A stretch of DNA of 16,591 nucleotides from IMG/VR virus record IMGVR_UViG_2718217897_000003; one strand, written 5' to 3'. Below are positions 1 to 16,019 of this stretch, in pieces. The DNA comes from a virus (Duplodnaviria; Heunggongvirae; Uroviricota; Caudoviricetes). Numbering within the stretch: position 1 is the first letter of the stretch; every line of letters begins with the position of its first letter. Position numbers and translations under genes: made by a program. The notes beneath the pieces were generated by a model. The model did no database searches. It saw only the letters and a program-made list of their open reading frames with translations, and was not told the DNA's origin.

Positions 1-900
1 TTAACGCAACAGTGGACAATCTGGTGGTAATCGACAACGCAACGCTGCCGGAAGTATTTCAATATGAAAATTTTGCCCACTCAACGGTTCGCCATCAAGA
101 TTAAAGGTGATGTCGTGTGGTGCCTGAATATCAAACCACGACGAAGCGCCTTCGATAATATTCGGGTTATCTTCGTCAGATTTTAAGGTTGATACGAGAG
201 CCGGAAGTATTTCATCGCCGGTAAAAATGCGCAGTTGCAGCAAGCCATCGTTAATTAACGCGTTCGGACACAATTGCTGACCGCCACCGGCCTGACGCCC
301 GTTACCAATACCAATGACCAGGGCGTCACCTTGCCAGTGAAAGTTTTCACCGCGGATTTCACAACGGTCCGGTTGCAGAGTATCCATGCGCATTAAGCCA
401 TGAATGATGTAAGAGACGCCACCCAGCGCGGCTTTTAATTTTTCCGGCGTTTCTGTGGTAATACGCGTCCCAAATCCGCCTGTCGCCATATTAATAAAAC
501 AGGTTTGTTTGTTGACCTGCGCCATATCTATCGCAATGGCGTTACCGGCAATTGCCAGTTTCAGCGCCTTATCCAGTGCCTCAGGAATCCCTACACTGGT
601 GGCAAAATCATTGGCGGTTCCTAATGGCAAAATTCCCAGCGCGGGTATGTCATCCCCCTCACACTGAATCAACGCCGTAGAAACTTCATTAATGGTGCCA
701 TCACCACCACCGGCAATCACCGTTGCGACGCCCAACTTCCGGGCCTCCTCTACATATCGTGCGGCATCGCCTTTCTCCCAGGTGACCCGCACATGGATCG
801 TCATTCCTTCCTCACGCAACAGCATAATTGCTTCGCGCAAGGGTAAATTGTCAGTACTTTTGCCATTAAGAATCAGTAAGCTGGCGGGAAATTCTGCCAT
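1..900 (-). CDS. yegS: Lipid kinase YegS (DAG-kinase-like catalytic domain family), host gene
   Basis: The minus ORF 1..1068 contains a 299-aa protein starting [14 protein letters not shown] at the ATG whose complement is at 898-900, with TAA stop at 1-3. It carries the GGGDGT motif ([13 protein letters not shown]) of this kinase family, and I recognise it as E. coli YegS. The 56 codons upstream in the ORF track are in-frame read-through, not protein. Confidence 0.92.
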
Positions 901-1304
901 GATCGTATGTGCCTTTATGATTGGTCTGTAGATAGTGTAGAGCAGAAAAGAAAAGGTGGAGTCAGAACAGGATGAAAGTCGGAGGATAAAAGTCAGTTCA
1001 AGTATGGAGGATTCAGTGGTTACCACCAGGAGCTTGCAATGGGGACAGCGAATACTAACGGCAGCCACCGATAAATTTCAAAAAAGAGAATATACCTAAT
1101 ATTCAACTAAACGGTGGCATCTTCAATATAATATATTAAAGCCCTCATGGAGTTACCCGGAAGGGCCTCCATGTCCGTAATTCCTACTTATGTAGGAAAT
1201 GTTGTACAGAACATTTATTATAATCCTATTCAATTATAATAATCATGCCATTATTATATTTAAACACTAGAGAGTGTCGTTGGTATTTAATGGGGGAAGG
1301 TGAG

Positions 1305-1622
1305 ATGAAAAAGATAGCTGCTATATCATTAATTAGTATTTTTATTATGTCTGGTTGTGCTGTGCATAATGATGAGACAAGTATCGGTAAATTTGGTCTT
1401 GCATATAAAAGTAATATTCAGCGTAAACTCGATAACCAATACTACACCGAAGCCGAAGCTTCTTTAGCCAGGGGTAGAATATCTGGTGCAGAAAATATAG
1501 TAAAAAATGATGCAACTCATTTCTGTGTTACTCAGGGCAAAAAAATGCAAATAGTTGAGCTGAAGACAGAAGGTGTAGGATTACATGGTGTCGCTCGTCT
1601 GACATTCAAATGTGGAGAGTGA
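1305..1622 (+). CDS. yegR: Small predicted lipoprotein YegR (105 aa), host gene divergent from yegS
   Basis: ATG at 1305 is preceded by GAAGGTGAG. The N-terminus MKKIAAISLISIFIMSGC looks like a signal peptide with a lipobox cysteine. I recall this as E. coli YegR. The ORF-track start at 1245 is an upstream in-frame extension. Confidence 0.8.
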   Translation: MKKIAAISLISIFIMSGCAVHNDETSIGKFGLAYKSNIQRKLDNQYYTEAEASLARGRISGAENIVKNDATHFCVTQGKKMQIVELKTEGVGLHGVARLTFKCGE

Positions 1623-1781
1623 GAATATTTTTTGGTAAGCGTCAAATATGCGCGTTCTGGCTGTGCGTAGCCGGAACCTGTGGGAGCACGATGCCGATAA
1701 GTGAAAGGCATCGTGCTATGAAGGAGGATTCTATCGATGTGGTCAATGGAAGACGGTTACCAGAGATAGGGCTTATGCATA

Positions 1782-1808
1782 AAAAAATAAGCCCGTGTAA
1801 GGGATATT
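1782..1808. other. Prophage attL core (P2-type att core; identical to the 3' terminator end of the cyaR sRNA gene)
   Basis: AAAAAATAAGCCCGTGTAAGGGA matches the P2 att core as I recall it and the reverse complement of the cyaR 3' end. Sequence to the right diverges from cyaR and leads into int, so this is the phage-derived duplicate, not a complete cyaR. Confidence 0.7.
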
Positions 1809-1887
1809 TAGGGTGTCACCAGTAGGGGCTTTCAACGGTACAATGCGGGTTTGAGCGGCATAAATTACCACTGAAAGCCCTTAAACG

Positions 1888-2901
1888 TTACTCTACTGTG
1901 GACACTGTGTGGACACTCTCGGCCTCAGTACCACCTCTTAGCGGATTAAGAGAAATGGCGTCCTGAAGGTACTCTGGCGCAAAATGAGCGTAAACCATAG
2001 TTTGCTCAATCCGCGTGTGACCTAGTATCCGTTGTAGCGTGATAATACTTCCTCCATTAATCATGAAATGAGTGGCAAAGCTGTGCCTTAGTGCATGTGT
2101 GGCTTGCCCCGTTGGCAAATCCGGTTTTATTGCTTTCATTGTTCGTCTGAAGCGAGGGTAATCAGCATCAGGGAATAAAAAACCTCGTTTGTTATCCGCG
2201 ATCATTTTGGCAACAGCCTCTGAGATCGGGACGGTGCGTGGTTTGTTTGTTTTCGTTTTAACAAACGTGACGCGGTTATGGATGATATTTTCTGCTTTCA
2301 AACGAGCTGCTTCTCCCCAACGTGCTCCTGTACTCAGGCAAAGAATCGCAATCTTTTTATTGTCGCCGTCAAGTGCTGCAAGCAGTAAGGCAATTTCTTC
2401 CTGTGTGAGATAGCCTGTTTCTGGTTTTTCCTCCTTAAGCCTCTTTGTCCCTCTGATAGGGTGCTCACCAAAGAATAACTCCGCTTCAATCAGGGCTGTA
2501 AACATGCCGCTAATACATGTTAAATCACGATTGATACTCGAAGGTTTAATACCCTGACTTCTTCGGGTGGCGCAGTACTGGCTGATAAGGGATTTCGTGA
2601 TTTGAAATGCGCATGGGTCATTCGTTATTTTTGTGAAGATTTCAATTTTTCCAAGATTAGATTTCCCATGCTCTTCGTGTTTACCCTTTAAATCCCACCA
2701 GATCTGTGTCAGTTCCGACAGACGTCGTTTGTCTGTTGGTTTTGATAGCCATTCTTTATTGTGGTGGTTGTACAACGTGTATTTTTCGAAAGCGACAGCT
2801 TCGCTTTTCTTATCAAACTTCCTACGGATGCGTTTTCCATTACGTCCAGTAGGGCGGATGTCCACTTCATATCGACCATCATCGAGTTTTTTGATTGCCA
2901 T
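1888..2901 (-). CDS. int: P2-type tyrosine integrase (337 aa)
   Basis: Protein MAIKKLDDGRYEVDIRPTGRNGKRIRRKF ... HALRHSFATHFMINGGSIITLQRILGHTRIEQTMVYAHF carries the R..H-x-x-R..Y tyrosine recombinase motifs. GGAGGG lies upstream of the ATG (complement at 2899-2901); stop complement at 1888-1890. It sits next to the att core. Confidence 0.95.
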   Translation of the reverse strand: MAIKKLDDGRYEVDIRPTGRNGKRIRRKFDKKSEAVAFEKYTLYNHHNKEWLSKPTDKRRLSELTQIWWDLKGKHEEHGKSNLGKIEIFTKITNDPCAFQITKSLISQYCATRRSQGIKPSSINRDLTCISGMFTALIEAELFFGEHPIRGTKRLKEEKPETGYLTQEEIALLLAALDGDNKKIAILCLSTGARWGEAARLKAENIIHNRVTFVKTKTNKPRTVPISEAVAKMIADNKRGFLFPDADYPRFRRTMKAIKPDLPTGQATHALRHSFATHFMINGGSIITLQRILGHTRIEQTMVYAHFAPEYLQDAISLNPLRGGTEAESVHTVSTVE

Positions 2902-3016
2902 CAGAAAACCCTCCGAGTGGTACTTTTTTTTGCTACTACTAATCGCTTTTTTCGTGGTGGCTGAAATTTAGCCACCAATAGTAGGCACTTGTGATGAATA
3001 TATTCACGATAAATTG

Positions 3017-3316
3017 TTAACCAGTCTTTTGACCGGAGTGGGGCGACGTTGTTTCGTTTTGCCCAAAGTGTGCGAGAGCGGGCGCAATTTGCCCGGCTTC
3101 TGGAGCTACCTGATCAGTCATGAACCACAAAGTATATTTAGTAAATCTAGGATGTTGTAAGACCTTCATTATGGCTTCAACTCCAGCGTTTTTTGACCGG
3201 CTCTCATAGCTCGAAAGTGAGCTGTAGGCTACACCAGTTAATTCACTGAATTCTTTACGGTTTAACCTTTCAGATTCACGGATTAGCTTCAACTTCTCCG
3301 AAACGTCTATTGACAT
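3017..3316 (-). CDS. C: Immunity repressor, P2 C-like (99 aa)
   Basis: Protein MSIDVSEKLKLIRESERLNRKEFSELTGVAYSSLSSYE ... FTKYTLWFMTDQVAPEAGQIAPALAHFGQNETTSPHSGQKTG. The C-terminal half resembles P2 repressor C as I recall it, and the N-terminal half is helix-turn-helix-like. It is divergent from cox, as in the P2 switch. The ORF-track start at 3388 is an upstream extension. Confidence 0.85.
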   Translation of the reverse strand: MSIDVSEKLKLIRESERLNRKEFSELTGVAYSSLSSYESRSKNAGVEAIMKVLQHPRFTKYTLWFMTDQVAPEAGQIAPALAHFGQNETTSPHSGQKTG

Positions 3317-3393
3317 AATTACTCCGATTGCGTAATTTCTTGCTGATAGTGTGAAATGTTGTGCTTCTGGAGTTATCCTTTTAGGCAATAATT

Positions 3394-3412
3394 AGCCATT
3401 AGGAGCCATTAG
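3394..3412. promoter_or_regulatory. Candidate repressor operator: tandem direct repeat AGCCATTAG x2 with 10-bp period in the C/cox divergent promoter region
   Basis: AGCCATTAG occurs at 3394-3402 and 3404-3412, between the divergent C and cox starts. P2-type repressors bind direct-repeat operators; the assignment is by position and repeat structure only. Confidence 0.4.
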
Positions 3413-3437
3413 AAGCACTAAGGGAGAATCGTAGCAG

Positions 3438-3713
3438 ATGAATAGACAGCTTGTAAGCGTGACTGATGCCGTGCCTTATCAGGAGTTTGCAAAACTCATT
3501 GGTAAAACTCCAAGAGCTGTAAGGGGCATGATTGAGAAAGGGAAATTACCAGTTATTGAGATTACTGACCCTCAGTCAGTATCGGGGCGTGCTGGTGAAT
3601 ATTGGGTATACCTTCCGGCATGGAATAACGGACTAAAACTGGCTTATGAAAGCCGTCCTAAAGAGATTCGTGACGGCTGGTTGATGTGGTTAGGTCTCGG
3701 TGAACCACGTTAA
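3438..3713 (+). CDS. cox: Cox (early-operon repressor/excisionase, 91 aa)
   Basis: Protein ... PYQEFAKLIGKTPRAVRGMIEKGKLPVIEITDPQSVSGRAGEYWVYLPAWNNGLKLAYESRPKEIRDGWLMWLGLGEPR closely matches P2 Cox as I recall it. First gene of the rightward early operon. Confidence 0.9.
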   Translation: MNRQLVSVTDAVPYQEFAKLIGKTPRAVRGMIEKGKLPVIEITDPQSVSGRAGEYWVYLPAWNNGLKLAYESRPKEIRDGWLMWLGLGEPR

Positions 3714-3723
3714 GGAGAACCGT

Positions 3724-3894
3724 ATGAATGAGCCTCGTTGTATTGCTCAGTTATTGCGTAACGAAAGCCCTAGGGCGATTGACTTCACCATCACCCACGG
3801 TAAGGGGCGTAAGGGAATCATTATCCGCACCAAAAAACAGAGTCCGTTAAAAAAGGCTCTGACCTTTCTGAAAAGCCGGAGGGTCTGGAAATGA
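3724..3894 (+). CDS. Small early protein, P2 orf78 position (56 aa)
   Basis: ATG at 3724 with GGAG 9 nt upstream; stop overlaps the B start (ATGA at 3891-3894). Called by position in the P2 early operon. Confidence 0.55.
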   Translation: MNEPRCIAQLLRNESPRAIDFTITHGKGRKGIIIRTKKQSPLKKALTFLKSRRVWK

Positions 3895-4391
3895 CAGTGA
3901 TGACGCTCAATCTCGTTGAAAAACAGCCAGCAGCTATGCGCCGGATAATTGGTAAGCATCTGGCCGTCCCTCGCTGGCAGGAGACATGCGATTATTATAA
4001 TCAGATGATGGAACGCGAACGGCTAACGGTTTGCTTCCATGCGCAGTTAAAACAGCGTCACGCAACGATGCGTTTTGAAGAAATGAACGACGTCGAACGT
4101 GAACGGCTGGTTTGTGCAATTGATGAATTGCGTGGGGCATTCTCAAAACGCCGTCAGGTTGGCGCAAGTGAGTATGCATATATTAGTTTTTTAACAGTCA
4201 GTCAGCGTCGTACTTTATTTATGCATGCCGGATTGACTGAAAAAGAATTCAACCAGCCATACTGGCGAATTAATGAAGAATCATGTTACTGGCGTGATGC
4301 TTTATTCCGTGCATTACGTGAATTATTCAGCCTGTTTGAGTATGCACCGACAATTCTGACGTCGGTAAAACCAGAGCAATATCTGCATTAA
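3891..4391 (+). CDS. B: Replication protein B (helicase-loader-like, 166 aa)
   Basis: 166-aa product MTVMTLNLVEKQPAAMRRIIGKHLAVPRWQETCDYYNQMMERERL..., matching P2 gpB in size, position and, as I recall it, sequence. Confidence 0.88.
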   Translation: MTVMTLNLVEKQPAAMRRIIGKHLAVPRWQETCDYYNQMMERERLTVCFHAQLKQRHATMRFEEMNDVERERLVCAIDELRGAFSKRRQVGASEYAYISFLTVSQRRTLFMHAGLTEKEFNQPYWRINEESCYWRDALFRALRELFSLFEYAPTILTSVKPEQYLH

Positions 4392-4454
4392 ATAATTAAC
4401 CAGAGTTTTTAATGCACTTAATCGTGCGGGGCTTCTTTTTGCCTGGAGAAAGTC

Positions 4455-4679
4455 ATGCATACAGTTTCTGAAAACAAGTGCGGTAAATACGCATTACTGC
4501 TGCAACAGGCCAGAGCCGAAGCACATGCCGACGCAGCGACACGCTTTTCTTCTCATCTTGACGCCATGATTCGCCATATCACAAAGGCGGAGTTATCCCG
4601 CGTGGAGATAGTCGAGCTGCTCAGTCAGGAGTCGGAAAAATTTCACAATATCGGATTGTCTCGCGGGGAGGTGCTTTGA
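4455..4679 (+). CDS. Hypothetical early protein, P2 orf80 position (74 aa)
   Basis: ATG at 4455; stop overlaps the next start (TGATG). Conserved position between B and A. Confidence 0.6.
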
Positions 4680-4978
4680 TGTCCTGTTCTCATTCAGTTG
4701 TATTACTGAATAACGCCTTAAAAATCGCCGTTATGAAAAATGGCGATTTGTCTCTTATTCAACTTTGCCTTGATAAAGAAAAACGCGACATAACTGAATC
4801 TGTTATCGCGATTTATCAGAATGAATTAAACCTCCTGTCTGATGTGGTCAATTTACTTGTTAAACGCGCTGTATTCCACAAGCAAATTTCCTCAGTGGAT
4901 GAACTGACAAAATTAACGACAGAACTTGCCAGTTATTGCGCTGATGTATCCAGGAAACTTAACGATAAAAGGAGCTGA
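4679..4978 (+). CDS. Hypothetical early protein, P2 orf81 position (99 aa)
   Basis: ATG at 4679 overlaps the upstream stop; the ORF-track start at 4676 is a TTG one codon earlier. AAAAGGAG near its 3' end serves the next gene. Confidence 0.6.
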   Translation: MSCSHSVVLLNNALKIAVMKNGDLSLIQLCLDKEKRDITESVIAIYQNELNLLSDVVNLLVKRAVFHKQISSVDELTKLTTELASYCADVSRKLNDKRS

Positions 4979-4980
4979 TA

Positions 4981-5205
4981 ATGCCGGACAACGTAGATTT
5001 TATTCAGGAACAACAGGCTGAATTACTGGAGCGCCAGATTAACGCGGCAAGGGTAAAACATTGCGGTGCTTCTGCGCTGGTTTGCGAAGAGTGTAACGCG
5101 CCAATACCTGCTGCCCGTCGTGCGGCTTACCCGTCAGCCACGCGTTGTGTTTCCTGTCAGTCAGTCTTTGAAGCAAAAAACAAACATTACCGGAGAACGG
5201 CATGA
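4981..5205 (+). CDS. DksA/TraR-type C4 zinc-finger protein, P2 orf82 position (74 aa)
   Basis: AAAGGAG precedes the ATG at 4981. Four cysteines in CxxC ... CxxC arrangement (HCGASALVCEECNAPIPAARRAAYPSATRCVSCQ). Confidence 0.75.
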   Translation: MPDNVDFIQEQQAELLERQINAARVKHCGASALVCEECNAPIPAARRAAYPSATRCVSCQSVFEAKNKHYRRTA

Positions 5206-5477
5206 GTATTCGTATTGAAATTGGCGAACGTTATGTCGTTACCAGTGACAGCTTTCAGTTTATTCTCCACGAGAAAAAGAGAGCGGAAAGCGGTAAAAAC
5301 GCCGGTCAGGAATGGCTGGCGGTGGTTGGTTATTACCCGAAATTAAGCCAGCTCGTTTCCGGCCTGATGCATCACGATATTCTTACCGGAAGCGCAAAGT
5401 CTTTTGCTGATTTAAACGCGCAGGTTGAGCAACTCAGCAAGCGTTGTTCAGAGGCTTTTGGCTCATATGGCCGTTAA
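5202..5477 (+). CDS. Hypothetical early protein, P2 orf83 position (91 aa)
   Basis: ATGA overlap with the orf82 stop; its 3' end overlaps the A start by 11 nt. Confidence 0.7.
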   Translation: MSIRIEIGERYVVTSDSFQFILHEKKRAESGKNAGQEWLAVVGYYPKLSQLVSGLMHHDILTGSAKSFADLNAQVEQLSKRCSEAFGSYGR

Positions 5478-7749
5478 AGCCTCCGGGCGTTTTGTCCCTC
5501 CGTCAGCATTTGCCGCAGGCACCGGTAAGACGTTTACCGGTGCTTATGCATGGAACGCGCCACGCGAGGCCGTCGGGCGCGAAAGACCCCTTACACGTGA
5601 CGAGATGCGTCAGGTGCAAGGTGTTTTATCCACGATTAACCGCCTGCCTTACTTTTTGCGCTCGCTGTTTACTTCACACTATGACTACATCCGGCGCAAT
5701 AAAAGCCCGGTGCACGGGTTTTATTTCCTCACATCCACTTTTCAGCGTCGTTTATGGCCGCGCATTGAGCGTGTGAATCAGCGCCATGAAATGAACACCG
5801 ACGCGTCGTTGCTGTTTCTGGCAGAGCGTGACCACTATGCGCGCCTGCCGGGAATGAATGACAAGGAGCTGAAAAAGTTTGCCGCCCGTATCTCATCGCA
5901 GCTTTTCATGATGTATGAGGAACTCAGCGATGCCTGGGTGGATGCACATGGCGAAAAAGAATCGCTGTTTACGGATGAGGCGCAGGCTCACCTCTATGGT
6001 CATGTTGCTGGCGCTGCACGTGCTTTCAATATTTCCCCGCTTTACTGGAAAAAATACCGTAAAGGACAGATGACCACGAGGCAGGCATATTCTGCCATTG
6101 CCCGTCTGTTTAACGATGAGTGGTGGACTCATCAGCTCAAAGGCCAGCGTATGCGCTGGCATGAGGCGTTACTGATTGCTGTCGGGGAGGTCAATAAAGA
6201 CCGTTCTCCTTATGCCAGTAAACATGCCATTCGTGATGTGCGTGCACGCCGCCAGGCAAATCTGGAATTTCTTAAATCGTGTGATCTCGAAAACAGGGAA
6301 ACCGGCGAGCGCATCGACCTTATCAGTAAGGTGATGGGCAGTATTTCTAATCCTGAAATTCGCCGGATGGAGCTGATGAACACCATTGCCGGTATTGAGC
6401 GTTACGCCGCAGCAGAGGGTGATGTGGGGATGTTTATCACGCTGACCGCGCCGTCAAAGTATCACCCGACACGTCAGGTTGGAAAAGGCGAAAGTAAAAC
6501 CGTCCAGCTAAATCACGGCTGGAACGATGAGGCATTTAATCCAAAGGATGCGCAGCGTTATCTCTGCCGTATCTGGAGCCTGATGCGCACGGCATTCAAG
6601 GATAATGATTTACAGGTCTACGGTTTGCGTGTCGTCGAGCCACATCACGACGGAACGCCGCACTGGCATATGATGCTTTTTTGTAATCCGCGCCAGCGTA
6701 ACCAGATTATCGAAATCATGCGTCGCTATGCGCTCAAAGAGGATGGCGACGAAAGAGGAGCCGCGCGAAACCGTTTTCAGGCAAAACACCTTAATCGGGG
6801 CGGTGCTGCGGGGTATATCGCGAAATACATCTCAAAAAACATCGACGGCTATGCACTGGATGGTCAGCTCGATAACGATACCGGCAGACCTCTGAAAGAT
6901 ACTGCCGCGGCTGTTACTGCATGGGCGTCAACGTGGCGCATCCCGCAATTTAAAACGGTTGGTCTGCCGACAATGGGGGCTTACCGTGAACTACGCAAAT
7001 TGCCTCGCGGCGTCAGCATTGCTGATGAGTTTGACGAACGCGTCGAGGCTGCACGCGCTGCCGCAGACAGTGGCGATTTTGCGTTGTATATCAGTGCGCA
7101 GGGTGGGGCAAATGTTCCGCGCGATTGCCAGACTGTCAGAGTCGCCCGTAGCCCGTCGGATGAAGTTAACGAGTACGAGGAAGAAGTCGAGAGAGTGGTC
7201 GGCATTTACGCGCCGCATCTCGGCGCGCGTCATATTCATATCACCAGAACGACGGACTGGCGCATTGTGCCGAAAGTTCCGGTCGTGGAGCCTTTGACTT
7301 TAAAAAGCGGCATCGCCGCGCCTCGGAGTCCTGTCAATAACTGTGGAAAGCTCACCGGTGGTGATACTTCGTTATCGGCTCCCACACCGACTGAGCATGC
7401 TGCAGCGGTGTTAAATTTTATAGATGAAGGGATTCTAAGTTGGACCGAGCCAGGCATTATGAAGGTACTTAGAGACTTATTGAGTAATGAACTGAAATGC
7501 AGTAATCGTTCACAGCAGAGCTTTACTCCTTTCAATGGTCGAAGCTACTTTCCTGCCCCATCCGCCCGGTTGACAAGGCAGGAGAGAAAGACTATCCCGA
7601 AAATTAAGGTTCTTCTTGCACAAAGTGACATTCAGGCTAGTTATTGGGAGCTTGAAGCTCTCGCTCGCGGAGCTGTTTTGGATTTTGGGCATAAGCGTTT
7701 TAAATTTGATACCGATATCGACTTTTTTGACAGACAGCGTGAGTGGTAG
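5467..7749 (+). CDS. A: Replication initiation protein A (rolling-circle initiator, 760 aa)
   Basis: Protein starts MAVKASGRFVPPSAFAAGTGKTFTGAYAWNAPREAVGRERPLTRDEMRQ at the ATG at 5467 and carries an HxH-like motif (TPHWHMMLF) and a tyrosine-rich GYIAKYISKN region typical of gpA-family initiators. The ORF-track start at 5425 is an extension. The last 110 codons or so are AT-richer than the rest. Confidence 0.92.
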   Translation: MAVKASGRFVPPSAFAAGTGKTFTGAYAWNAPREAVGRERPLTRDEMRQVQGVLSTINRLPYFLRSLFTSHYDYIRRNKSPVHGFYFLTSTFQRRLWPRIERVNQRHEMNTDASLLFLAERDHYARLPGMNDKELKKFAARISSQLFMMYEELSDAWVDAHGEKESLFTDEAQAHLYGHVAGAARAFNISPLYWKKYRKGQMTTRQAYSAIARLFNDEWWTHQLKGQRMRWHEALLIAVGEVNKDRSPYASKHAIRDVRARRQANLEFLKSCDLENRETGERIDLISKVMGSISNPEIRRMELMNTIAGIERYAAAEGDVGMFITLTAPSKYHPTRQVGKGESKTVQLNHGWNDEAFNPKDAQRYLCRIWSLMRTAFKDNDLQVYGLRVVEPHHDGTPHWHMMLFCNPRQRNQIIEIMRRYALKEDGDERGAARNRFQAKHLNRGGAAGYIAKYISKNIDGYALDGQLDNDTGRPLKDTAAAVTAWASTWRIPQFKTVGLPTMGAYRELRKLPRGVSIADEFDERVEAARAAADSGDFALYISAQGGANVPRDCQTVRVARSPSDEVNEYEEEVERVVGIYAPHLGARHIHITRTTDWRIVPKVPVVEPLTLKSGIAAPRSPVNNCGKLTGGDTSLSAPTPTEHAAAVLNFIDEGILSWTEPGIMKVLRDLLSNELKCSNRSQQSFTPFNGRSYFPAPSARLTRQERKTIPKIKVLLAQSDIQASYWELEALARGAVLDFGHKRFKFDTDIDFFDRQREW

Positions 7750-7784
7750 TTGAAAAAACGGTTGAACGGGGTAACAATATGTTA

Positions 7785-7814
7785 TTGTTGAGGAATTGTT
7801 TGTTATGGTTTAAT
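7785..7814 (+). promoter_or_regulatory. Candidate sigma70-like promoter for the cargo operon (-35 TTGTTG 7785-7790, -10 TTTAAT 7809-7814), overlapping a palindrome
   Basis: Hexamers with 18-bp spacing about 25 bp upstream of the 7838 ATG; palindrome AACAATA-tgt-TATTGTT at 7773-7789. Pattern match only. Confidence 0.3.
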
Positions 7815-7837
7815 TTTTATACACGGCAGAAAAGCAT

Positions 7838-9061
7838 ATGAGCATGGTTGAATGGATAAGCCACGAGAAAAAAGATAGCCTGATACTATTTGTACATGGA
7901 TTAAATGGTGGTTTGGAAACATGGAACTTTAATAAAGAAATTTCATTTCCAAAACTATTAGCAGAAGATGAAGATATTAGCAACGTATTTGATATTGCAT
8001 GTTTCAATTATTTTACTAAATTCACACAAACGTATGCTAAAACGTCAGGATTCTTGGCTCGTATTTTCTTTAAGAAAAATAAGTTAGAGAGAAATTTACC
8101 AACTGATGAAATAGCTGAGTTATTGTATACTGAGATTAGAGTAACACTAAGTGATTACTCTCGAATTATAATAATCGCCCATAGTATGGGGGGGTTAATA
8201 TCAAAAAATCTAATTCTAAAAAAAGTTGAGCATGAGGAACAATCTAATATAATTGGATTCATTTCGTTAGCAGTCCCTCACTTTGGTGCTAAATTAGCGA
8301 ATATAACTTCAATGGTATCTTCAAATGCTCAGTTAGTAGATCTTGGATTGTTAAGTGAAGCGACTGATACATTGAATAGGCGCTGGATAAATTGTAGCAA
8401 AAAACTTCCTATCACTAGATATGTTTATGGATCTCATGACACTATAGTCGATAAAAAAAGCGCATTACCGATGGATAGTGAACGACATAACTCAATTGCA
8501 GTTAATGAAGGGCATAGCTCAATTTGCAAGCCCGAAAATAGCTCGTCTACAGTGTTTGTTGCGGTAAAGCAATTTATTCAGCAGATAAATTTAGAAGCAC
8601 CCAAGAAGATTTGCGTTGAGCGTTTTTCTGATGATAAACAATATGATAATGAGTATTTCGTCTTAAAAATGATTGTCGCAGATATACATCAGGATATCGC
8701 TCTGCATGCAAAGGAATATTATTATAATGCTGAGCTTGCGAGAAATATTTTTACGAGTGATTACGATAGAAAACAACTTGGTCATTTGTATTCTAAAATA
8801 AGGGAGATTTACCAGGAAGAGTATGAGCAATACATTGCAAATTCAATTTCCCCAGATAAATTTATTGCTGCTGTTCATAGACGAATAACCCAGGAGGATA
8901 AGTCGTCGTTAGATTCTCTTATAAAAAGTTTGGAAACGATACATAAGAAAGGAATGTTGCATCAACTGGCTAACAAAAATGACAGGGATATTGTCTGGTC
9001 ATCTGAAACCAGCGTAGAAACTTTGGAGCAATTACGGCGAGGTAATCATGAAGAAAAATAA
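7838..9061 (+). CDS. Cargo protein 1: lipase-like alpha/beta serine hydrolase with C-terminal helical domain (407 aa), candidate defense effector
   Basis: AT-rich ORF. Oxyanion-hole-like HGLNGG (res 20-25), nucleophile elbow AHSMGG (Ser116, the pentapeptide of Bacillus lipase A), candidate acid Asp201 (YGSHDTIVD) and His226 (NEGHSSI), in the canonical order. The C-terminal 150 residues or so are helical and K/E-rich. The stop overlaps the next gene by 14 nt. Confidence 0.75.
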   Translation: MSMVEWISHEKKDSLILFVHGLNGGLETWNFNKEISFPKLLAEDEDISNVFDIACFNYFTKFTQTYAKTSGFLARIFFKKNKLERNLPTDEIAELLYTEIRVTLSDYSRIIIIAHSMGGLISKNLILKKVEHEEQSNIIGFISLAVPHFGAKLANITSMVSSNAQLVDLGLLSEATDTLNRRWINCSKKLPITRYVYGSHDTIVDKKSALPMDSERHNSIAVNEGHSSICKPENSSSTVFVAVKQFIQQINLEAPKKICVERFSDDKQYDNEYFVLKMIVADIHQDIALHAKEYYYNAELARNIFTSDYDRKQLGHLYSKIREIYQEEYEQYIANSISPDKFIAAVHRRITQEDKSSLDSLIKSLETIHKKGMLHQLANKNDRDIVWSSETSVETLEQLRRGNHEEK

Positions 9062-9560
9062 CTTGCCGTATATACCTCTTGATGAAGAGTATAGTTTGAA
9101 TTTTGCTATGCTTGCCATTGCTATATCTATATTATCTCATAGCAAAAAAGGAGTGTTGTCATTAGATATTAATAAAATACAAATTTTTATGTATCTGATA
9201 AAAAATCCATCAAAAATTGATTGTGCTCTTACAGTTTCGGGGAAAAAGCCTGCTTGTGTCGAGTCCCAGTTAACTTATACAATAAAGAGTTTTTCATCAA
9301 ATGTAGATATCTTATTCGACAATTCCAAAGTGAAATATCTTATAAAAATTATGTCATTGCGGGGATTGCTCTCAGCTGAGAAAAAAAATAATGAGAGTGT
9401 TAAATTATTTTTATCTGAAAAAGGTAAGGAATTTGCTAGCTCATTGACTGATGGATATTTTAAAGAAATAAAACGACTAGCCGAAGCATTGTTACCGCTA
9501 CAAGCATTGCCTACCTCTAAGTTAAACTCTGTTATAAACAAAGTCTTCAAGGAGAAATGA
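9048..9560 (+). CDS. Cargo protein 2: small 170-aa protein of unknown function, possible adaptor or kleisin-like middle component
   Basis: ATG at 9048 lies inside the 3' end of gene 1, and ATGA overlaps gene 3 at 9557-9560, indicating translational coupling in one operon. AT-rich; no motif recognised by eye. Confidence 0.7.
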   Translation: MKKNNLPYIPLDEEYSLNFAMLAIAISILSHSKKGVLSLDINKIQIFMYLIKNPSKIDCALTVSGKKPACVESQLTYTIKSFSSNVDILFDNSKVKYLIKIMSLRGLLSAEKKNNESVKLFLSEKGKEFASSLTDGYFKEIKRLAEALLPLQALPTSKLNSVINKVFKEK

Positions 9561-11527
9561 TGAAATCATATCTCAATATCAATAGTTTGATTCTTGTTGG
9601 CGTTCGTAAAAACTACGTCACTACTTTTTATAAAGGTCTCAATGTTATCTACGGAGACTCTGACACAGGTAAGTCAAGTATTCTGGAGTTTATTAATTAT
9701 CTTTTAGGTGCTAGTTCTATAGATTTAGCAGATGAAATAAAAACATCAGTAAACTATGCTGCTCTTGAAGTAGTGATCAATGATACTGTATTCACAATCG
9801 TAAGAGATATCTATGATCATAAAAAATCAATAGAAGTTTATCGTTGTAAGTTTGATGATTTACATAAACACTTTCCGAAAAAATACGCCCCTAATTATAG
9901 CCCCTTATCAAATGTTGATGGCGTTTTTTCGGAGTTTTTACTTGATAGTCTTAATTTTCCAAAAATTGAAATTAAGGTGTCTCCTTCTAAAGCACATTCA
10001 CAGATGCGCAGGTTAAGCTTTAGAAATATATATAAATTTGTTTATGTAAGTCAGGATGATATTGGTAGTAAATCATTCTTACGATTGGAGGATTGGTCCC
10101 GTTACGCATTTACGAAAGAAGTTTTTAAATACATGTTCAATGTGTTGGATGAAAGCATCGCCAGACTCCAAGGTGAAATATCTGCAAAAAGTAGTTTAGT
10201 AACGGAACTAAATAAGAAGTATCAGATAATATCTGAATTTCTTCGCGATACAGACTATGAAACAATTGAATCAATTGATGATGAGATTAATAGGATAGAT
10301 CTTATTTTAGAAGAACTTGTTGCAGGTTTGTCTGCTCTCGATAAAAATATGAAAGCGGATTCCATGCAGTATACAGAATTGAAAGATGCCCACAATTTTA
10401 TTTCGCTTAAATACAAGGAGTGCATATTAAATATTAGCACGCTTGAGGATAAGATTGATAAATATTCGCGGTTAAAAAATGACTATGATAATGATATTGA
10501 AAAACTCAAAGCGATTAAAACAGCAAATTCTCGCATTGGTGTATTGGATAAGGAAGTATTTTCCTGTCCGATCTGTGATAGCCACATTAAAATAGATGAT
10601 TCCGATTTTCCATTTGAAATTTCATCAGAAAAAGATCTTAATGAAGAGTTGAATTCACTTAGTCGACGTAGACGAAATATTAATGACATGATCTCAGAAA
10701 TGTCATTTAAATTAAAAAAAGAATCTGGTTATAAAAAAGAATTAGATGAACAACTTGACGAGTTGAGAGAGTTAATTGACGAAGAAAGCCAGTCAATGAT
10801 TACACCATTCTTGACTCAGAGAGATTTTTATATTAAAGAGATATCAAAAAACGAGAAGGTTAGGGAGCAGTTAGTAAAAGATTTGAAGGTTAGAAACCAG
10901 CAAGAGGAACTGCTTGAAAAGCATCAGGTACTGATAAAAGATATTGAAACATTAACTGAACGCTTGGATGCGTTAAAGAAAAACGCACCTAGTATGGAAG
11001 GCATTTTACAAGGTTTAGGTGATAGATTTAGTCAGTATTTGAAGGGTATTAATATCAAAAACAGAACGGGGATAAAAATCTCTGAAAGATATTACACCCC
11101 TGTTATAAGAGGAAAGGAATATTTTAAAATAACGTCCGGAGGTTTGAGAACTATTTCTTCTATTGGGTATCTTTTGTCTATTCTTGATTATGCAATAGAC
11201 CATAATGTTAACCATCCTTTACTTTTGATATTTGATACGGTTGGTAAATATTTAGGGAAACAGACCAAGGAAAAATACTCAAAAGAAACTCTTGCAGTCG
11301 AGGATGACCTTGAGGGGATGTCAGACCCGATGAAGTATCAAAATATTTATGAGCAACTATTGAATACAGTTCAAAAAGCAGAAAGAAAAAATGTTCCGTG
11401 CCAGATTATATTAGTTGATAATGATTTGCCTAATTCGTTTTCTACTGGTGAACTTTCGAATATTATCGCTCATTATAGCTCGGTTGGTGAGGATGGTTTG
11501 CCTTTAGGTTTAATTGATGACCTTTAA
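9557..11527 (+). CDS. Cargo protein 3: SMC/Rad50/SbcC-like ABC ATPase with coiled coil and CxxC hook (656 aa)
   Basis: N-terminal Walker A GDSDTGKSS (K39), Q-loop-like VSQDD (Q166), a charged heptad-rich segment of about 350 residues with a single CPIC (C337/C340) near its middle, signature-like TSGG (526-529) and Walker B-like LLLIFD (555-560). Confidence 0.8.
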   Translation: MMKSYLNINSLILVGVRKNYVTTFYKGLNVIYGDSDTGKSSILEFINYLLGASSIDLADEIKTSVNYAALEVVINDTVFTIVRDIYDHKKSIEVYRCKFDDLHKHFPKKYAPNYSPLSNVDGVFSEFLLDSLNFPKIEIKVSPSKAHSQMRRLSFRNIYKFVYVSQDDIGSKSFLRLEDWSRYAFTKEVFKYMFNVLDESIARLQGEISAKSSLVTELNKKYQIISEFLRDTDYETIESIDDEINRIDLILEELVAGLSALDKNMKADSMQYTELKDAHNFISLKYKECILNISTLEDKIDKYSRLKNDYDNDIEKLKAIKTANSRIGVLDKEVFSCPICDSHIKIDDSDFPFEISSEKDLNEELNSLSRRRRNINDMISEMSFKLKKESGYKKELDEQLDELRELIDEESQSMITPFLTQRDFYIKEISKNEKVREQLVKDLKVRNQQEELLEKHQVLIKDIETLTERLDALKKNAPSMEGILQGLGDRFSQYLKGINIKNRTGIKISERYYTPVIRGKEYFKITSGGLRTISSIGYLLSILDYAIDHNVNHPLLLIFDTVGKYLGKQTKEKYSKETLAVEDDLEGMSDPMKYQNIYEQLLNTVQKAERKNVPCQIILVDNDLPNSFSTGELSNIIAHYSSVGEDGLPLGLIDDL

Positions 11528-11655
11528 TACTATACATGCATTTTTTTGAATTAGATTGCATGTGGATAATGAGTCTATTTAGTGAAGGGAAGGTTTTGTG
11601 TGACGTGACTTTCGATAAAATTCAACCGCATTAAAACCGCCCCATGAAGCGGGCG

Positions 11656-11674
11656 GGCGAGGCGGGGAAAGCAC
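11656..11674. other. cos site (19-nt cohesive-end sequence GGCGAGGCGGGGAAAGCAC) with flanking G/T-rich repeats
   Basis: The 19-mer matches the P2 cohesive end as I recall it, lying between the end of the rightward operon and the 3' end of Q, where cos sits in a P2 prophage. G/T-rich reiterated motifs follow at about 11700-11815. Confidence 0.65.
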
Positions 11675-11815
11675 TGCGCGCTGGCGGTGGTGCTGATTTT
11701 ATTTTTTAGCGTCTCAGCGCGTCGTGATGGCGTTTAGATTGTGCGCCGGGGCGTTGGTGTGTCTGCGGGGTGTTTTGTGCGGTGGTGAGCGTGTGAGGGC
11801 GTGATGACGGGGTGT

Positions 11816-11837
11816 AAAAAAGCCGCCCGCAGGCGGC
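11816..11837 (-). terminator. Rho-independent terminator downstream of Q (minus strand)
   Basis: GCCGCC-cgca-GGCGGC hairpin at 11822-11837, preceded on the plus strand by AAAAAA (a U-run on the minus strand after the stem), immediately 3' of the Q stop at 11843-11845. Confidence 0.55.
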
Positions 11838-11842
11838 GATGT

Positions 11843-12814
11843 TCAGCCGTTGTCAGTGTCCAGTGAGTAGTTTTTAAAGCGGATGACCTCCTGACCGAGC
11901 CAGCCGTTTATCTCACGGATCCTGTCCTGTAACGGGATAAGCTCATTGCGGACAAAGACCTTTGCCACTTTCTCAATATCACCCAGCGACCCGACGTTCT
12001 CCGGCTTGCCGCCCATCAACTGAAAGGGGATGCGGTGCGCGTCCAGCAGGTCTGCGGCACTGGCTTTTTTGATATTAAAAAAATCGTCCTTCGTCGCCAC
12101 TTCACTGAGCGGGATAATTTTAATGCCGTCGGCTTTTCCCTGTGGGGCATAGAGAAACAGGTTTTTAAAGTTGTTGCGGCCTTTCGACTTCACCATGTTT
12201 TCGCGAAGCATTTCGATATCGTTGCGATCCTGCACGGCATCAGTGACGTACATGATGTATCCGGCATGTGCGCCGTTTTCGTAATACTTGCGGCGGAACA
12301 GCGTGGCCGACTCATTCAGCCAGGCAGAGTTAAGGGCGCTGAGATATTCCGGCAGGCCGTACAGCTCCTGATTAATATCGGGCTCCAGCAGGTGAAACAC
12401 GGAACCGGGCGCGAAGGCTGTCGGTTCGTTGAAGGACGGCACCCACCAGTAAACATCCTCCTCCACGCCACGGCGGGTATATTTTGCCGGTGAGGTTTCC
12501 AGTCTGATGACCTTACCGGTGGTGCTGTAACGCTTTTCCAGAAACGCATTACCGAACACCAGAAAATCCAGCACAAAGCGGCTGAAATCCTGCTGGGAAA
12601 GCCACGGGTGCGGGATAAACGTTGAAGCCAGAATATTACGTTTGACGTAAATCGGTGAGCTGTGATGCACGGCAGCACGCAGACTTTTTGCCAGACCGGT
12701 AAAGCTGACCGGTGGCTCATACCATCTGCCGTTACTGATGCATTCGACGTAATCCAGAATGTCACGGCGGTCGAGTACCGGCACTGGCTCACCATGCTGA
12801 AAAATCAGCTTCAT
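11843..12814 (-). CDS. Q: Portal protein Q (323 aa as encoded here; 5' end abuts a deletion junction, possibly N-terminally truncated)
   Basis: Minus-strand ORF with host-like GC content in the expected place and orientation next to cos. From memory P2 Q is about 344 aa, so about 20 codons may be missing. Sequence directly upstream of its ATG is lysB-derived rather than gene P. Confidence 0.8.
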   Translation of the reverse strand: MKLIFQHGEPVPVLDRRDILDYVECISNGRWYEPPVSFTGLAKSLRAAVHHSSPIYVKRNILASTFIPHPWLSQQDFSRFVLDFLVFGNAFLEKRYSTTGKVIRLETSPAKYTRRGVEEDVYWWVPSFNEPTAFAPGSVFHLLEPDINQELYGLPEYLSALNSAWLNESATLFRRKYYENGAHAGYIMYVTDAVQDRNDIEMLRENMVKSKGRNNFKNLFLYAPQGKADGIKIIPLSEVATKDDFFNIKKASAADLLDAHRIPFQLMGGKPENVGSLGDIEKVAKVFVRNELIPLQDRIREINGWLGQEVIRFKNYSLDTDNG

Positions 12815-13075
12815 GTTGCGCTCACCAGGGCAGACAAAAACGAGCTGGCGCAGGTGGCACTGCGTCAGGAACTGGAAAACGCCGCGAAGCGTGAAGCTCA
12901 GCGCGAGAAAACCATCACGAGATTACTCAATGAAAACGAAGATTTCCGCCGCTGGTATGGCGCTGACCTGCCTGATGCTGTGCGCCGGTTGCACCAGCGC
13001 CCCGCCTGCACCGACGCCAGTGATTGTCCACAACGCCTGCCCGAAAGTGAGTCTTTGCCCGATGCCGGGCAGTGA
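12815..13075 (+). pseudogene. lysB: lysB remnant (Rz-like spanin, 3' portion only)
   Basis: The frame ending at 13075 encodes ...ALTRADKNELAQVALRQELENAAKREAQREKTITRLLNENEDFRRWYGADLPDAVRRLHQRPACTDASDCPQRLPESESLPDAGQ, but upstream of about 12815 the same frame is antisense to Q. There is no lysB start or N-terminal transmembrane region. The 5' boundary is approximate (plus or minus 30 nt). Confidence 0.6.
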
Positions 13076-13220
13076 CCCGCAGACGAACGGCGATTTAAGT
13101 GCCGATATCCGGCAGCTTGAGAACGCGCTGGCACGCTGTGCCAGCCAGGTAAAAATGATTAAACACTGTCAGGACGAAAACGATGCTCAAACCCGACAGC
13201 CTGCGCAGGGCGCTGACTGA
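12930..13220 (+). CDS. lysC: LysC (Rz1-like outer-membrane lipoprotein spanin, 96 aa), embedded in the lysB frame region
   Basis: MKTKISAAGMALTCLMLCAGCTS has a signal peptide and lipobox Cys; the rest is proline-rich. Embedded out of frame in lysB as in P2. Likely non-functional without full LysB. Confidence 0.7.
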   Translation: MKTKISAAGMALTCLMLCAGCTSAPPAPTPVIVHNACPKVSLCPMPGSDPQTNGDLSADIRQLENALARCASQVKMIKHCQDENDAQTRQPAQGAD

Positions 13221-13650
13221 TGCCGTCACGGTGCTGAAAACTAACCCCGATATGCTTCGGATATTCGTGGATAACGGGAGTATTGCCTCCACACTGGCGA
13301 CGTCGCTGTCATTCGAAAAGCGTTACACGCTCAATGTCATTGTGACCGATTTTACCGGTGATTTTGACCTGCTCATCGTGCCGGTGCTGGCGTGGCTGCG
13401 GGAAAATCAGCCCGACATCATGACCACCGACGAAGGCCAGAAAAAAGGCTTCACGTTTTATGCAGACATCAACAATGACAGCAGCTTTGATATCAGTATC
13501 AGCCTGATGCTGACCGAACGCACGCTGGTCAGTGAGGTGGGCGGCGCGCTGCATGTGAAGAATATCCCGGAACCCCCGCCGCCGGAGCCGGTCACCCGCC
13601 CGATGGAGCTTTATATCAATGGCGAACTGGTGAGTAAGTGGGATGAATGA
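13183..13650 (+). CDS. R: Tail completion protein R (155 aa)
   Basis: MLKPDSLRRALTDAVTVLKTNPDMLRIFVDNGS... matches P2 gpR in sequence as I recall it, and in size and position. Confidence 0.9.
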   Translation: MLKPDSLRRALTDAVTVLKTNPDMLRIFVDNGSIASTLATSLSFEKRYTLNVIVTDFTGDFDLLIVPVLAWLRENQPDIMTTDEGQKKGFTFYADINNDSSFDISISLMLTERTLVSEVGGALHVKNIPEPPPPEPVTRPMELYINGELVSKWDE

Positions 13651-14095
13651 GTTTAAGCGTTTTGAAGACCGGCTGACCGGGCTGATTGAATCGCTGTCAC
13701 CGTCAGGGCGTCGGCGACTGAGCGCCGAACTGGCGAAACGTCTGCGTCAGAGTCAGCAGCGTCGGGTGATGGCACAGAAAGCCCCGGACGGCACCCCCTA
13801 CGCGCCACGTCAGCAGCAGAGCGCCAGAAAAAAGACCGGTCGCGTTAAGCGAAAAATGTTTGCGAAACTTATTACCAGTCGTTTTTTGCATATCCGCGCC
13901 AGCCCGGAACAGGCATCAATGGAATTTTACGGCGGGAAGTCGCCGAAAATCGCCAGTGTGCATCAGTTCGGTCTGTCGGAAGAAACCCGGAAAGACGGTA
14001 AGAAAATTGATTATCCGGCGCGTCCTCTGCTCGGCTTTACCGGTGAGGATGTGCAGATGATTGAAGAGATTATCCTGGCTCACCTTGAGCGTTAG
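13643..14095 (+). CDS. S: Tail completion protein S (150 aa)
   Basis: MNEFKRFEDRLTGLIESLSPSGRRRLSAELAKRLRQSQQRRV... matches P2 gpS as I recall it; start overlaps the R stop. Confidence 0.9.
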   Translation: MNEFKRFEDRLTGLIESLSPSGRRRLSAELAKRLRQSQQRRVMAQKAPDGTPYAPRQQQSARKKTGRVKRKMFAKLITSRFLHIRASPEQASMEFYGGKSPKIASVHQFGLSEETRKDGKKIDYPARPLLGFTGEDVQMIEEIILAHLER

Positions 14096-14125
14096 TTTTA
14101 TCCAGGCAGAGGCTGATGCGCAATT

Positions 14126-14160
14126 AAACATTGAGCGGCCATGCTGGTCGCTCAATGTTT
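14126..14160. terminator. Perfect 12-bp-stem hairpin between convergent S and the membrane-protein gene; candidate bidirectional terminator
   Basis: AAACATTGAGCG-(11 nt loop)-CGCTCAATGTTT, 30 nt after the S stop and just before the minus-strand gene's stop. Only a short U-run (the stem's own TTT). Confidence 0.45.
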
Positions 14161-14166
14161 AGAGGC

Positions 14167-14952
14167 TTATGAGTGATTTTTATTTGATGCTTTGTATTCT
14201 ACAACCTTCTTATTGGCGTAAAGGAATTTTGTATATGACAGGAATATAACCAGACCTGAAATGAAATAGATGAGGGATATTATTAATAATGCTTTTTTTT
14301 GGCTGTTATTATCTTTAATTTCCTGACTTAACCATTCCGAGTCCTCCTCGTTTAGCTGTAAGAGCTTATTGCAGGCGATCTCAGGAAGTGTGTCTTTTAT
14401 AAATATGTTTCGTAGCCTCTTGCAATCGGCAAGGCTATAAGTTTTATTGAATTCAACTGTTTTATTGTTGAAGGATAAAAGAACTTTGTCACTATAAACA
14501 TAGTACATCATATTTTTATATGGTATGCCTATGGCATCTCTTACTATAGCGGATTGTTTGTTGTGTATATAACATGCGAAGAGAATATAAATAATGCTGG
14601 ACAGAATTACAATTATTGTTTTAATTATGTGTGGTGGTTTTGTTATGTCACCCCAGAAGCGAGTAAGAAAAAAATACGATGTTTTTAGTTTTCCATCAAT
14701 CAGCCCCTGCTGTATCATTCTCACATCTTCGATGCCTGATACATTGATTCCGTTAATTATTTTAAATAGTTGAATGTCGCGCCATTTTTTGTCGAGCATT
14801 TTTAACTTTCTGTCTGAATACTCAAAATTGAAATGATGTGCAATAAACCTCATAAGATTACTTTTACCAAAGGTAATAAATGTTAATGCTATTAATAAAA
14901 ATAGATACAAAGAGATAAACCACCACGCATTAGTCACATTATCACTGAACAT
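14167..14952 (-). CDS. AT-rich cargo gene: 261-aa integral membrane protein (about 3 predicted TM helices), unknown function, in the S-V slot (P2 orf30 position)
   Basis: ATG complement at 14950-14952 with GAGGAG 8 nt upstream on the minus strand. Hydrophobic segments WWFISLYLFLLIALTFITF, IIVILSSIIYILFACYI and ALLIISLIYFISGLVIFLSY. Opposite strand to the flanking tail genes. Confidence 0.8.
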   Translation of the reverse strand: MFSDNVTNAWWFISLYLFLLIALTFITFGKSNLMRFIAHHFNFEYSDRKLKMLDKKWRDIQLFKIINGINVSGIEDVRMIQQGLIDGKLKTSYFFLTRFWGDITKPPHIIKTIIVILSSIIYILFACYIHNKQSAIVRDAIGIPYKNMMYYVYSDKVLLSFNNKTVEFNKTYSLADCKRLRNIFIKDTLPEIACNKLLQLNEEDSEWLSQEIKDNNSQKKALLIISLIYFISGLVIFLSYTKFLYANKKVVEYKASNKNHS

Positions 14953-15035
14953 TACGCTCTCCTCGAATGTTGTATGGTCGTTCTACAAATGAATCCAGAT
15001 AGCATAACTTTTATATATTGTGCAATCTCACACGC

Positions 15036-15671
15036 ATGAACACTCTCGCAAATATTCAGGAACTCGCGCGCGCACTGCGCAACATGATTCGTACCGGCCT
15101 TGTCGTCGAAACCAACCTTAAAGCCGGTCGCTGCCGTGTGCAGACCGGTGGCATGTGCACTGACTGGCTTCAGTGGCTGACCCATCGTGCCGGACGTTCG
15201 CGCACATGGTGGGCACCTTCCGTGGGGGAACAGGTGCTGATTCTGGCTGTGGGCGGTGAACTCGACACGGCGTTCGTTCTGCCGGGGATTTATTCCGGCG
15301 ATAACCCCGCGCCGTCTGCGTCGGCGGATGCCCTGCATATCCGTTTCCCTGACGGGGCGGTGATTGAGTATGAACCCGAAACCAGTGCACTCACGGTAAG
15401 CGGAATTAAAACGGCCAGCGTGACGGCTTCTGATTCTGTTACTGCCACGGTGCCGGTGGTCATGGTGAAAGCATCAACCCGCGTCACCCTGGACACACCG
15501 GAGGTGGTTTGCACCAACAGGCTGATTACCGGCACGCTGGAAGTGCAGAAGGGCGGGACGATGCGCGGCAACATTGAACACACCGGCGGTGAACTCTCAT
15601 CAAACGGTAAGGTACTGCATACCCATAAACACCCCGGCGACAGCGGCGGCACAACCGGGAGCCCTCTATGA
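15036..15671 (+). CDS. V: Baseplate spike protein V (211 aa)
   Basis: MNTLANIQELARALRNMIRTGLVVETNLKAGRCRVQTGG... matches P2 gpV as I recall it. The ORF-track start at 15018 is a TTG extension; ATG at 15036. Confidence 0.92.
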   Translation: MNTLANIQELARALRNMIRTGLVVETNLKAGRCRVQTGGMCTDWLQWLTHRAGRSRTWWAPSVGEQVLILAVGGELDTAFVLPGIYSGDNPAPSASADALHIRFPDGAVIEYEPETSALTVSGIKTASVTASDSVTATVPVVMVKASTRVTLDTPEVVCTNRLITGTLEVQKGGTMRGNIEHTGGELSSNGKVLHTHKHPGDSGGTTGSPL

Positions 15672-16015: not shown

Positions 16016-16019
16016 AACC

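Follow-up and report, generated by a model that had tools for sequence, protein, structure and literature searches.

The developmental switch of a defective P2-like prophage beside yegR/yegS probably carries the immunity type of P2 Hy dis and of the Escherichia coli B prophage P2*B

We propose that a defective P2-like (Peduovirus) prophage adjoining yegR/yegS has its developmental switch in the segment around the repressor and cox genes, and that this switch carries the immunity type of P2 Hy dis and of the E. coli B prophage P2*B; we give this reading a probability of roughly 0.8. The segment lies in a window, i.e., the whole stretch of DNA analysed, of 16,591 nucleotides. The match to Hy dis is indirect and was made through published descriptions, a published primer and published identity figures. 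The original prediction, made from the DNA letters alone, had suggested a hetero-immune relative of P2. This held insofar as the C repressor is divergent and the P2 operators are missing, but not in the sense of something new: the divergent core recurs unchanged in 300+ genomes. The immunity type is most probably that of P2 Hy dis and E. coli B, which is already characterised and very common.

The window opens with a host flank (1-1808) containing yegS (minus strand) and yegR (1245-1622). The prophage-host junction was located at 1782-1808, where homology to P2 begins at the position of the P2 attP core. In blastn, positions 1782-3146 matched positions 381-1745 of the P2 locus with 98.2% identity, and the P2 attP core is annotated at 381-407. 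The junction is at the cyaR/ogr-D' site, where E. coli B has P2*B, E. coli W has Wphi2 and K-12 keeps a remnant (PMC3032704). An Rfam scan of the whole window returned no match; cyaR is not in the window and lies at the other end of the prophage.

The first phage gene after the junction encodes a P2-type integrase of 337 aa (1888-2901, minus strand; Pfam Int_N and Phage_integrase) and falls inside the stretch that is 98.2% identical to P2 DNA. It is followed by the gene for the repressor C of 99 aa (3017-3316, minus strand, ATG at 3316), identified by a structure match, by Pfam and by annotated homologues. After a C/cox intergenic region of 121 bp between 3316 and 3438 comes cox (3438-3713, plus strand), whose 91-aa product was recognised by Pfam Phage_Cox and is, by family, a repressor of Pc and an excision directionality factor. 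The gene order of the switch, int (leftward), C (leftward) and cox (rightward), is the one annotated in P2 (AF063097). The C gene, situated between int and cox, is read towards int and is convergent with the early operon, which is the P2-type layout, and downstream of cox come orf78, B and A, the gene for replication.

C fits the P2-type C repressor family, being a small single-domain HTH protein and a full-length homologue of P2 C. A phmmer search aligned residues 1-99 with the solved structure of P2 C (2XCJ/2L49; E = 2.5e-39), Pfam HTH_3 covers residues 9-54, and the protein is annotated at 99 aa in both REL606 and the phage vB_EcoM-720R8. A 123-aa, TTG-started version of the open reading frame was considered and rejected as an over-extension; the 99-aa ATG start has a GGAG Shine-Dalgarno sequence and fits all annotated homologues.

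The repressor is a mosaic, in which a P2-like C-terminal module is joined to a divergent HTH half. In an ungapped alignment, 64 of the 99 residues (64.6%) are identical to P2 C, and they are unevenly distributed: identity amounts to 39/42 over residues 58-99 and to 25/57 (44%) over residues 1-57, the HTH half. These values bear out the earlier observation that the C-terminal third is P2-like and that the N-terminal half differs. Alignment to the repressors of P2 and Wphi had been named as a check; with the above 64/99 to P2 C and 49.5% identity to Wphi C, the protein is not identical to P2 C. At the DNA level, the P2-like 3' module of the gene (residues ~59-99; 3017-3141, minus strand) has 83-100% identity to P2. 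In P2 C, this C-terminal part includes the dimer-interface residues L63/W64, the contact T67 for the P4 anti-repressor E and a disordered tail (PMC2995052). In the HTH half, the recognition helix, with its residues defined from PMC2995052, differs from that of P2 C at positions 30, 32, 33 and 36.

The divergent part extends beyond the repressor gene. Identity to P2 DNA is 97-100% over 2932-3081 and 83% over 3082-3141, falls to ~50% over 3142-3441, rises to 63-87% over 3442-3591 and is back at 97-100% from ~3592 onwards, within cox; in blastn, homology to P2 was interrupted at 3147-3459. The divergent cassette (3142-3591) thus comprises the HTH half of C, the operators, the two promoters and all of the intergenic region, and it runs on through the N-terminal two thirds of cox. 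It illustrates how immunity is exchanged among P2 relatives, the unit being a cassette of ~450 bp between the conserved C-terminal module of C and the conserved C-terminal third of cox. The C-terminal module and the P2-like flanks would supply the homology for recombination, by which the entire immunity cassette could be swapped between P2 relatives.

The half-site of the P2 operators O1 and O2, GTTTAGAT, was not found in 2902-3460, even when one mismatch was allowed. Its absence from the operator region, which the original prediction had proposed to look into, means that the P2 operators are missing, so the element should be heteroimmune to P2. An immunity class is defined by a C protein at least 95% identical to that of the class type (PMC3448106). 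The P2 class has a C protein at least 95% identical to P2 C and a pair of GTTTAGAT half-sites 22 bp apart at the Pe -10; in the window we found 64.6% and no such half-site.

The published C operator of Hy dis consists of two 8-bp direct half-sites that flank the Pe -35, with a centre-to-centre distance of 26 bp (PMC1904268, PMC2995052). The Hy dis O2 carries a natural point mutation (PMC1904268), and binding needs both half-sites (PMC1904268, PMC2995052). In the window, this geometry is fitted by a candidate O1 half-site, TTCTCCGA (3294-3301, plus strand), which lies inside the C codons S6-E7-K8, and by a candidate O2 half-site, TACTCCGA (3320-3327, plus strand), which has one mismatch to O1. 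Between them is the Pe -35 hexamer TTGACA (3310-3315, plus strand), aligned with the annotated TTGACA of P2 Pe. The probable Pe -10, TAATTT (3333-3338, plus strand), is a weak match and follows the -35 after 17 bp, the same spacing as in the annotated P2 promoter TTGACA-17-TAGTAT. A consensus promoter and terminator scan of 2850-3800 detected no promoter, neither Pe nor Pc, and Pe was therefore placed by homology to the annotated P2 Pe.

In an exhaustive scan of 3280-3440, TTCTCCGA/TACTCCGA was the only direct pair of 8-mers with at most one mismatch and a spacing of 26 bp, and it flanks TTGACA. The motif TWCTCCGA has only these two sites, 3294-3301 and 3320-3327, on both strands of the 16.6-kb window. 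Some 9/11 pair at a spacing of 15-40 bp was held by 22% of the shuffles, which makes the 26-bp pair statistically unremarkable by sequence alone; the operator was assigned to it because it fits the published Hy dis experiments, and not by sequence statistics. As a control, the published geometries of P2 and Wphi could likewise be read from their own sequences: half-sites of 8 bp at a distance of 22 bp in P2 and of 10 bp at a distance of 34 bp in Wphi, in both phages around the -10. From the published P2 Hy dis experiments together with the sequence, we infer that C dimers bind the direct half-sites TTCTCCGA and TACTCCGA. Both lie to the left of 3350-3437, the fragment that had been chosen for a gel-shift with the purified repressor. 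Such an experiment would probably probe the wrong DNA: the candidate operator straddles the Pe -35 and extends into the C coding sequence.

The candidate O2 half-site coincides in part with the Shine-Dalgarno GGAG of C (3322-3325), which is on the opposite strand. At O1, the Ser-Glu-Lys encoded by C codons 6-8 is conserved in the C proteins of the window, P2 and the Klebsiella phage discussed below, and Wphi has Phe at the first of these positions. With O2 on the Shine-Dalgarno sequence and O1 within C codons, the operator would be partly constrained by the repressor's own expression signals.

The original prediction had also pointed to a tandem repeat in the C/cox intergenic region, and this repeat is real. 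The two copies of AGCCATTAG occupy 3394-3402 and 3404-3412. Of 2000 dinucleotide shuffles of 3280-3440, 0.2% contained an exact 9-mer repeat with a spacing of 9-12 bp. Both copies are contained in a cox-box-like array with 10-bp phasing (3379-3423, plus strand), which overlaps the expected Pc and consists of the units TTTTAGGCA(A), (T)AATTAGCCA, TTAGGAGCCA, TTAGAAGCA(C) and TAAGG. The published cox-box consensus is TTAAA(G/C)NC(A/C), with at least six boxes 10-11 bp apart that overlap Pc (PMC3936717). The four to five phased units of the array match the P2 cox-box consensus at 5-7 of 9 positions, a consensus too loose to score. When it was scanned with at most two mismatches, the genome-wide counts in both the window and P2 were those expected by chance. 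As the consensus is non-specific, we used positional homology instead.

The array aligns with the P2 cox-box matches TAAAAGGCA, TATAAGACA and TTAAACGCA at positions 1979, 1989 and 1998 of the P2 locus and with the annotated P2 Pc -10. In a three-way alignment, it stands opposite the P2 stretch GGCACTAAAA / GGCATTATAA / GACATTAAAC, where the best P2 cox-box matches and the Pc -10 are located. The array is also the only local peak of identity to P2 (73%) within a cassette of ~50% identity. Cox itself, the product of the first gene of the early operon, was assigned to Pfam Phage_Cox (PF10743) with E = 1.7e-42 and is identical to P2 Cox at 76 of 91 residues (84%).

The comparison with other phages indicates which of the two regulators the array goes with. 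P2 and the Klebsiella phage ST16-OXA48phi5.4 share it; their C recognition helices are different, and their Cox proteins are 84-89% identical to that of the window. Wphi and L-413C, with a Cox identical to the window protein at 39 of 91 residues, have different repeats at the array position. In pro483 and in the "P2SIDE7" record, a different protein occupies the Cox slot, and the repeats at the array position are again different. In these alignments, the array goes with the type of Cox rather than with that of C, as one would expect if it were the site of Cox over Pc rather than a C operator specific to the immunity. The repeats thus most likely belong to the Cox/Pc part of the switch. The report that Hy dis Cox cross-complements P2 cox3 (PMC3936717) also fits the array as a Cox site.

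Among deposited phages, the Reipivirus phage ST16-OXA48phi5.4 (NC_049450.1, 902-1600) has the closest non-identical C, with 78% identity. Its C-terminal module agrees at 38 of 42 residues. The recognition helix is a different one, the O2 region has not been conserved, and identity in Cox is 89%. The phage apparently represents a further immunity type on the same scaffold. Operator footprinting by comparison with it was uninformative on O1 and O2, given the different helix and O2 region, but informative for the Cox array.

Another explanation of the tandem is that it is mere promoter sequence, in which a -10-like hexamer of Pc has been duplicated, or the relic of a 10-bp duplication, with no dedicated binding protein; we regard this as unlikely. 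The repeat unit does contain -10-like hexamers on the minus strand, and the candidates for the Pc -10 are CCTAAT (3403-3398), aligned with the annotated TATAAT of P2 Pc, and TCTAAT (3413-3408). However, the homologous P2 units are footprinted cox-boxes overlapping Pc (PMC3936717), and helical phasing over 4-5 units has been kept in three phages despite sequence drift. Moreover, promoter elements do not exclude a Cox site: Pc elements and Cox sites overlap in P2 too.

Natural variation was surveyed in 15 other copies, comprising the five most divergent complete genomes and ten places taken from an exact-protein index. All nine variable intergenic sites (3330, 3343, 3348, 3351, 3356, 3357, 3358, 3362 and 3363) fell within 3330-3363, a polymorphic spacer between Pe and the array. 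Among these 15 copies, no variable site was found in O1, the -35, O2, the -10, the array or the ribosome-binding region of cox. This pattern agrees with the functional map. Over 3000-3610, the five most divergent genomes had seven variable positions, six of them within 3348-3363. The ~600 bp of C and cox coding sequence had only a few variable positions in most of the 15 copies; one copy has five changes clustered at 3580-3593.

The cluster of polymorphisms at 3330-3363 could have arisen from relaxed constraint or from a mutational hotspot where Pe and Pc converge. We also considered that, in this immunity type, the array goes beyond a Cox site passed down from a P2-like ancestor, in that it is a variant box which shifts the specificity of Cox, or that it is contacted by C as well for the autoregulation of Pc, and, separately, that the 3330-3363 cluster reflects selection where transcription from Pe and Pc collides; we think there is only a slim chance of this.

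An 8-bp inverted pair, GTGCTTCT at 3361-3368 and AGAAGCAC at 3411-3418, had been noticed together with the tandem repeat. The pair exists at these positions, but it does not stand as a signal and was judged a chance match. Inverted pairs of 8 bp were present in 15.6% of 2000 dinucleotide shuffles of 3280-3440, and the RNA fold of the presumed cox leader (3345-3450) was indistinguishable from shuffles (z = -0.89). In addition, the left arm is disrupted in natural copies by 3362 T>C and 3363 G>A, neither of which is compensated.

The tandem repeat and the inverted pair had been taken for the operators of the repressor, an assignment that the analysis did not support. A C operator made of the AGCCATTAG tandem, with or without the GTGCTTCT/AGAAGCAC pair, and defining a new immunity specificity is very improbable, although the tandem is a non-random direct repeat, C-family repressors bind direct repeats (PMC2995052), and the array is invariant among the 15 natural copies compared. 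Being 56-74 bp downstream of the Pe -10, the repeats cannot occlude Pe, and their spacing is 10 bp, whereas it is 22-34 bp in all mapped C operators (PMC1904268). Furthermore, the published Hy dis operator flanks the -35, the array is kept in P2 and the Klebsiella phage, whose C recognition helices are not the same, and varies according to the type of Cox, and the inverted pair is at chance level and broken by natural variants.

The assignment of the switch to the Hy dis type is supported by comparison with published data. The Hy dis-specific primer A3-44 (CCTTTCAGATTCACGG, PMC1904268) matches exactly at 3266-3281, a short way upstream of the candidate operator. It matched the window, REL606 and 720R8 only and is absent from P2 and Wphi, and the published P2- and Wphi-specific primers (PMC1904268) match solely their own phages. 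The C proteins of the window, P2 and Wphi share 38 of 99 positions, and the published three-way identity of the Hy dis, P2 and Wphi repressors is 38% (PMC1904268). In pairwise comparisons, the window C has 64.6% identity to P2 C and 49.5% to Wphi C versus the published Hy dis figures of 63% and 44%, respectively.

The Cox protein of the window has E33, as reported for Hy dis Cox (PMC3936717). It reads T24-P25, whereas T25 is stated for Hy dis Cox in the same paper (PMC3936717). This mismatch is probably a numbering slip of one residue in that paper, the likeliest explanation because the proline of Wphi aligns with residue 24. A new immunity class that resembles P2 Hy dis in layout but differs in specificity, to which the small discrepancies with the published identity figures and the T25 statement might hint, is the least probable of the alternatives, in view of the exact match of the Hy dis primer and the failure of the P2- and Wphi-specific ones, the fitting operator geometry with its natural O2 mismatch, the three-way identity equal to the published figure and a cassette 100% identical to that of E. 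coli B.

The type is widespread. Of 5426 complete E. coli genomes, 348 carried the 311-bp divergent core with an identity of at least 98.7%, and in 338 of the 349 matching records the identity was at least 99%. It was 100% identical in 300+ complete E. coli genomes, E. coli B REL606 included, and the carriers among complete genomes include REL606, E. coli W and many O157:H7 strains. The exact C protein was present on at least 1000 contigs. Escherichia phage vB_EcoM-720R8 matches the region with 99.9% identity, and window positions 1-12601 are 99.95% identical to the REL606 prophage by yegS/yegR. Cohen (Virology, 1959) reportedly described P2 Hy dis as a recombinant between P2 and a defective prophage resident in E. 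coli B. The prophage of E. coli B has been named P2*B and is inserted at the cyaR/yegR site (PMC3032704 Table 2, the E. coli W genome paper). The cassette being common and already studied biochemically, the significance of the present case goes little beyond correct annotation.

The prophage outside the switch is defective (11843-16591). A remnant of the portal gene (11843-12814, minus strand) abuts the lysis-region open reading frames (12813-13220). These are followed by the tail-completion genes R and S, an unrelated open reading frame for a membrane-like protein of 261 aa (14167-14952, minus strand) and the baseplate genes V and W, and W then leads directly into the C-terminus of gene D (16274-16591). 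REL606 is without window positions 12602-13933 but retains J, I and H after W. The right-hand arrangement of the window (5 kb) was found in none of the complete E. coli genomes searched. After the replication gene A, in the slot that holds a moron in P2, there are three genes (7838-11527) encoding proteins of 407 aa and 170 aa and an AAA ATPase of 656 aa. In the 99.95% identical region of REL606, RefSeq labels these genes 'ABC-three component system', and they are candidate anti-phage defence cargo.

Taking the switch as one of the Hy dis type, we suggest the following mode of action. C dimers on O1 and O2, around the Pe -35, would block RNA polymerase at Pe and turn off rightward early transcription (cox, B and A). 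The shut-off of Pe would keep the lysogenic state and confer immunity solely to phages with the same half-sites. P2 C, with its different recognition helix, would have no site in this switch. Immunity is thus predicted against phages of the P2 Hy dis type and not against P2 or Wphi. By homology with P2, Cox made from Pe would polymerise on the array at 3379-3423 over the leftward Pc, which would turn off C synthesis and commit the phage to the lytic pathway.

Among known systems, Wphi (AJ245959) resembles the window in having a C-family repressor that acts on direct repeats and Pe and Pc promoters that are face to face. It differs in C (~50% identity), in Cox (44% identity), in its half-sites, which are of 10 bp, 34 bp apart and flank the -10, and in the repeats on the Cox side. 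P2 (AF063097) is closer: it shares the gene order, the face-to-face promoters, the same Pe -35 hexamer at the aligned position, the near-identical C-terminal 42 residues of C, a Cox with 84% identity and a homologous phased array over Pc. In contrast, identity falls to 44% in the HTH half of C, the two GTTTAGAT operators of P2, which are 22 bp apart and flank the -10, are absent in the window, and the intergenic region is 114 bp in P2 and 121 bp in the window.

The switch of P2 Hy dis (Renberg-Eriksson et al. 2001; Henriksson-Peltola et al. 2007, PMC1904268) has a C of 99 aa with ~63-65% identity to P2 C and an 8-bp half-site pair 26 bp apart around the Pe -35, with a mismatch in O2; the primer match and Cox E33 are further points of agreement. 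Between this switch, known here from descriptions, and that of the window, no difference can be demonstrated; the window copy resides in a deleted, defective prophage, whereas Hy dis is a viable phage. P2*B of REL606 is without ~1.3 kb of the window (12602-13933), and the window diverges from it beyond 16124, having the end of gene D next to W. The two prophages are otherwise alike, with 99.95% identity over window positions 1-12601 and 13934-16124, the same yegS/yegR flanks and the same C and Cox proteins.
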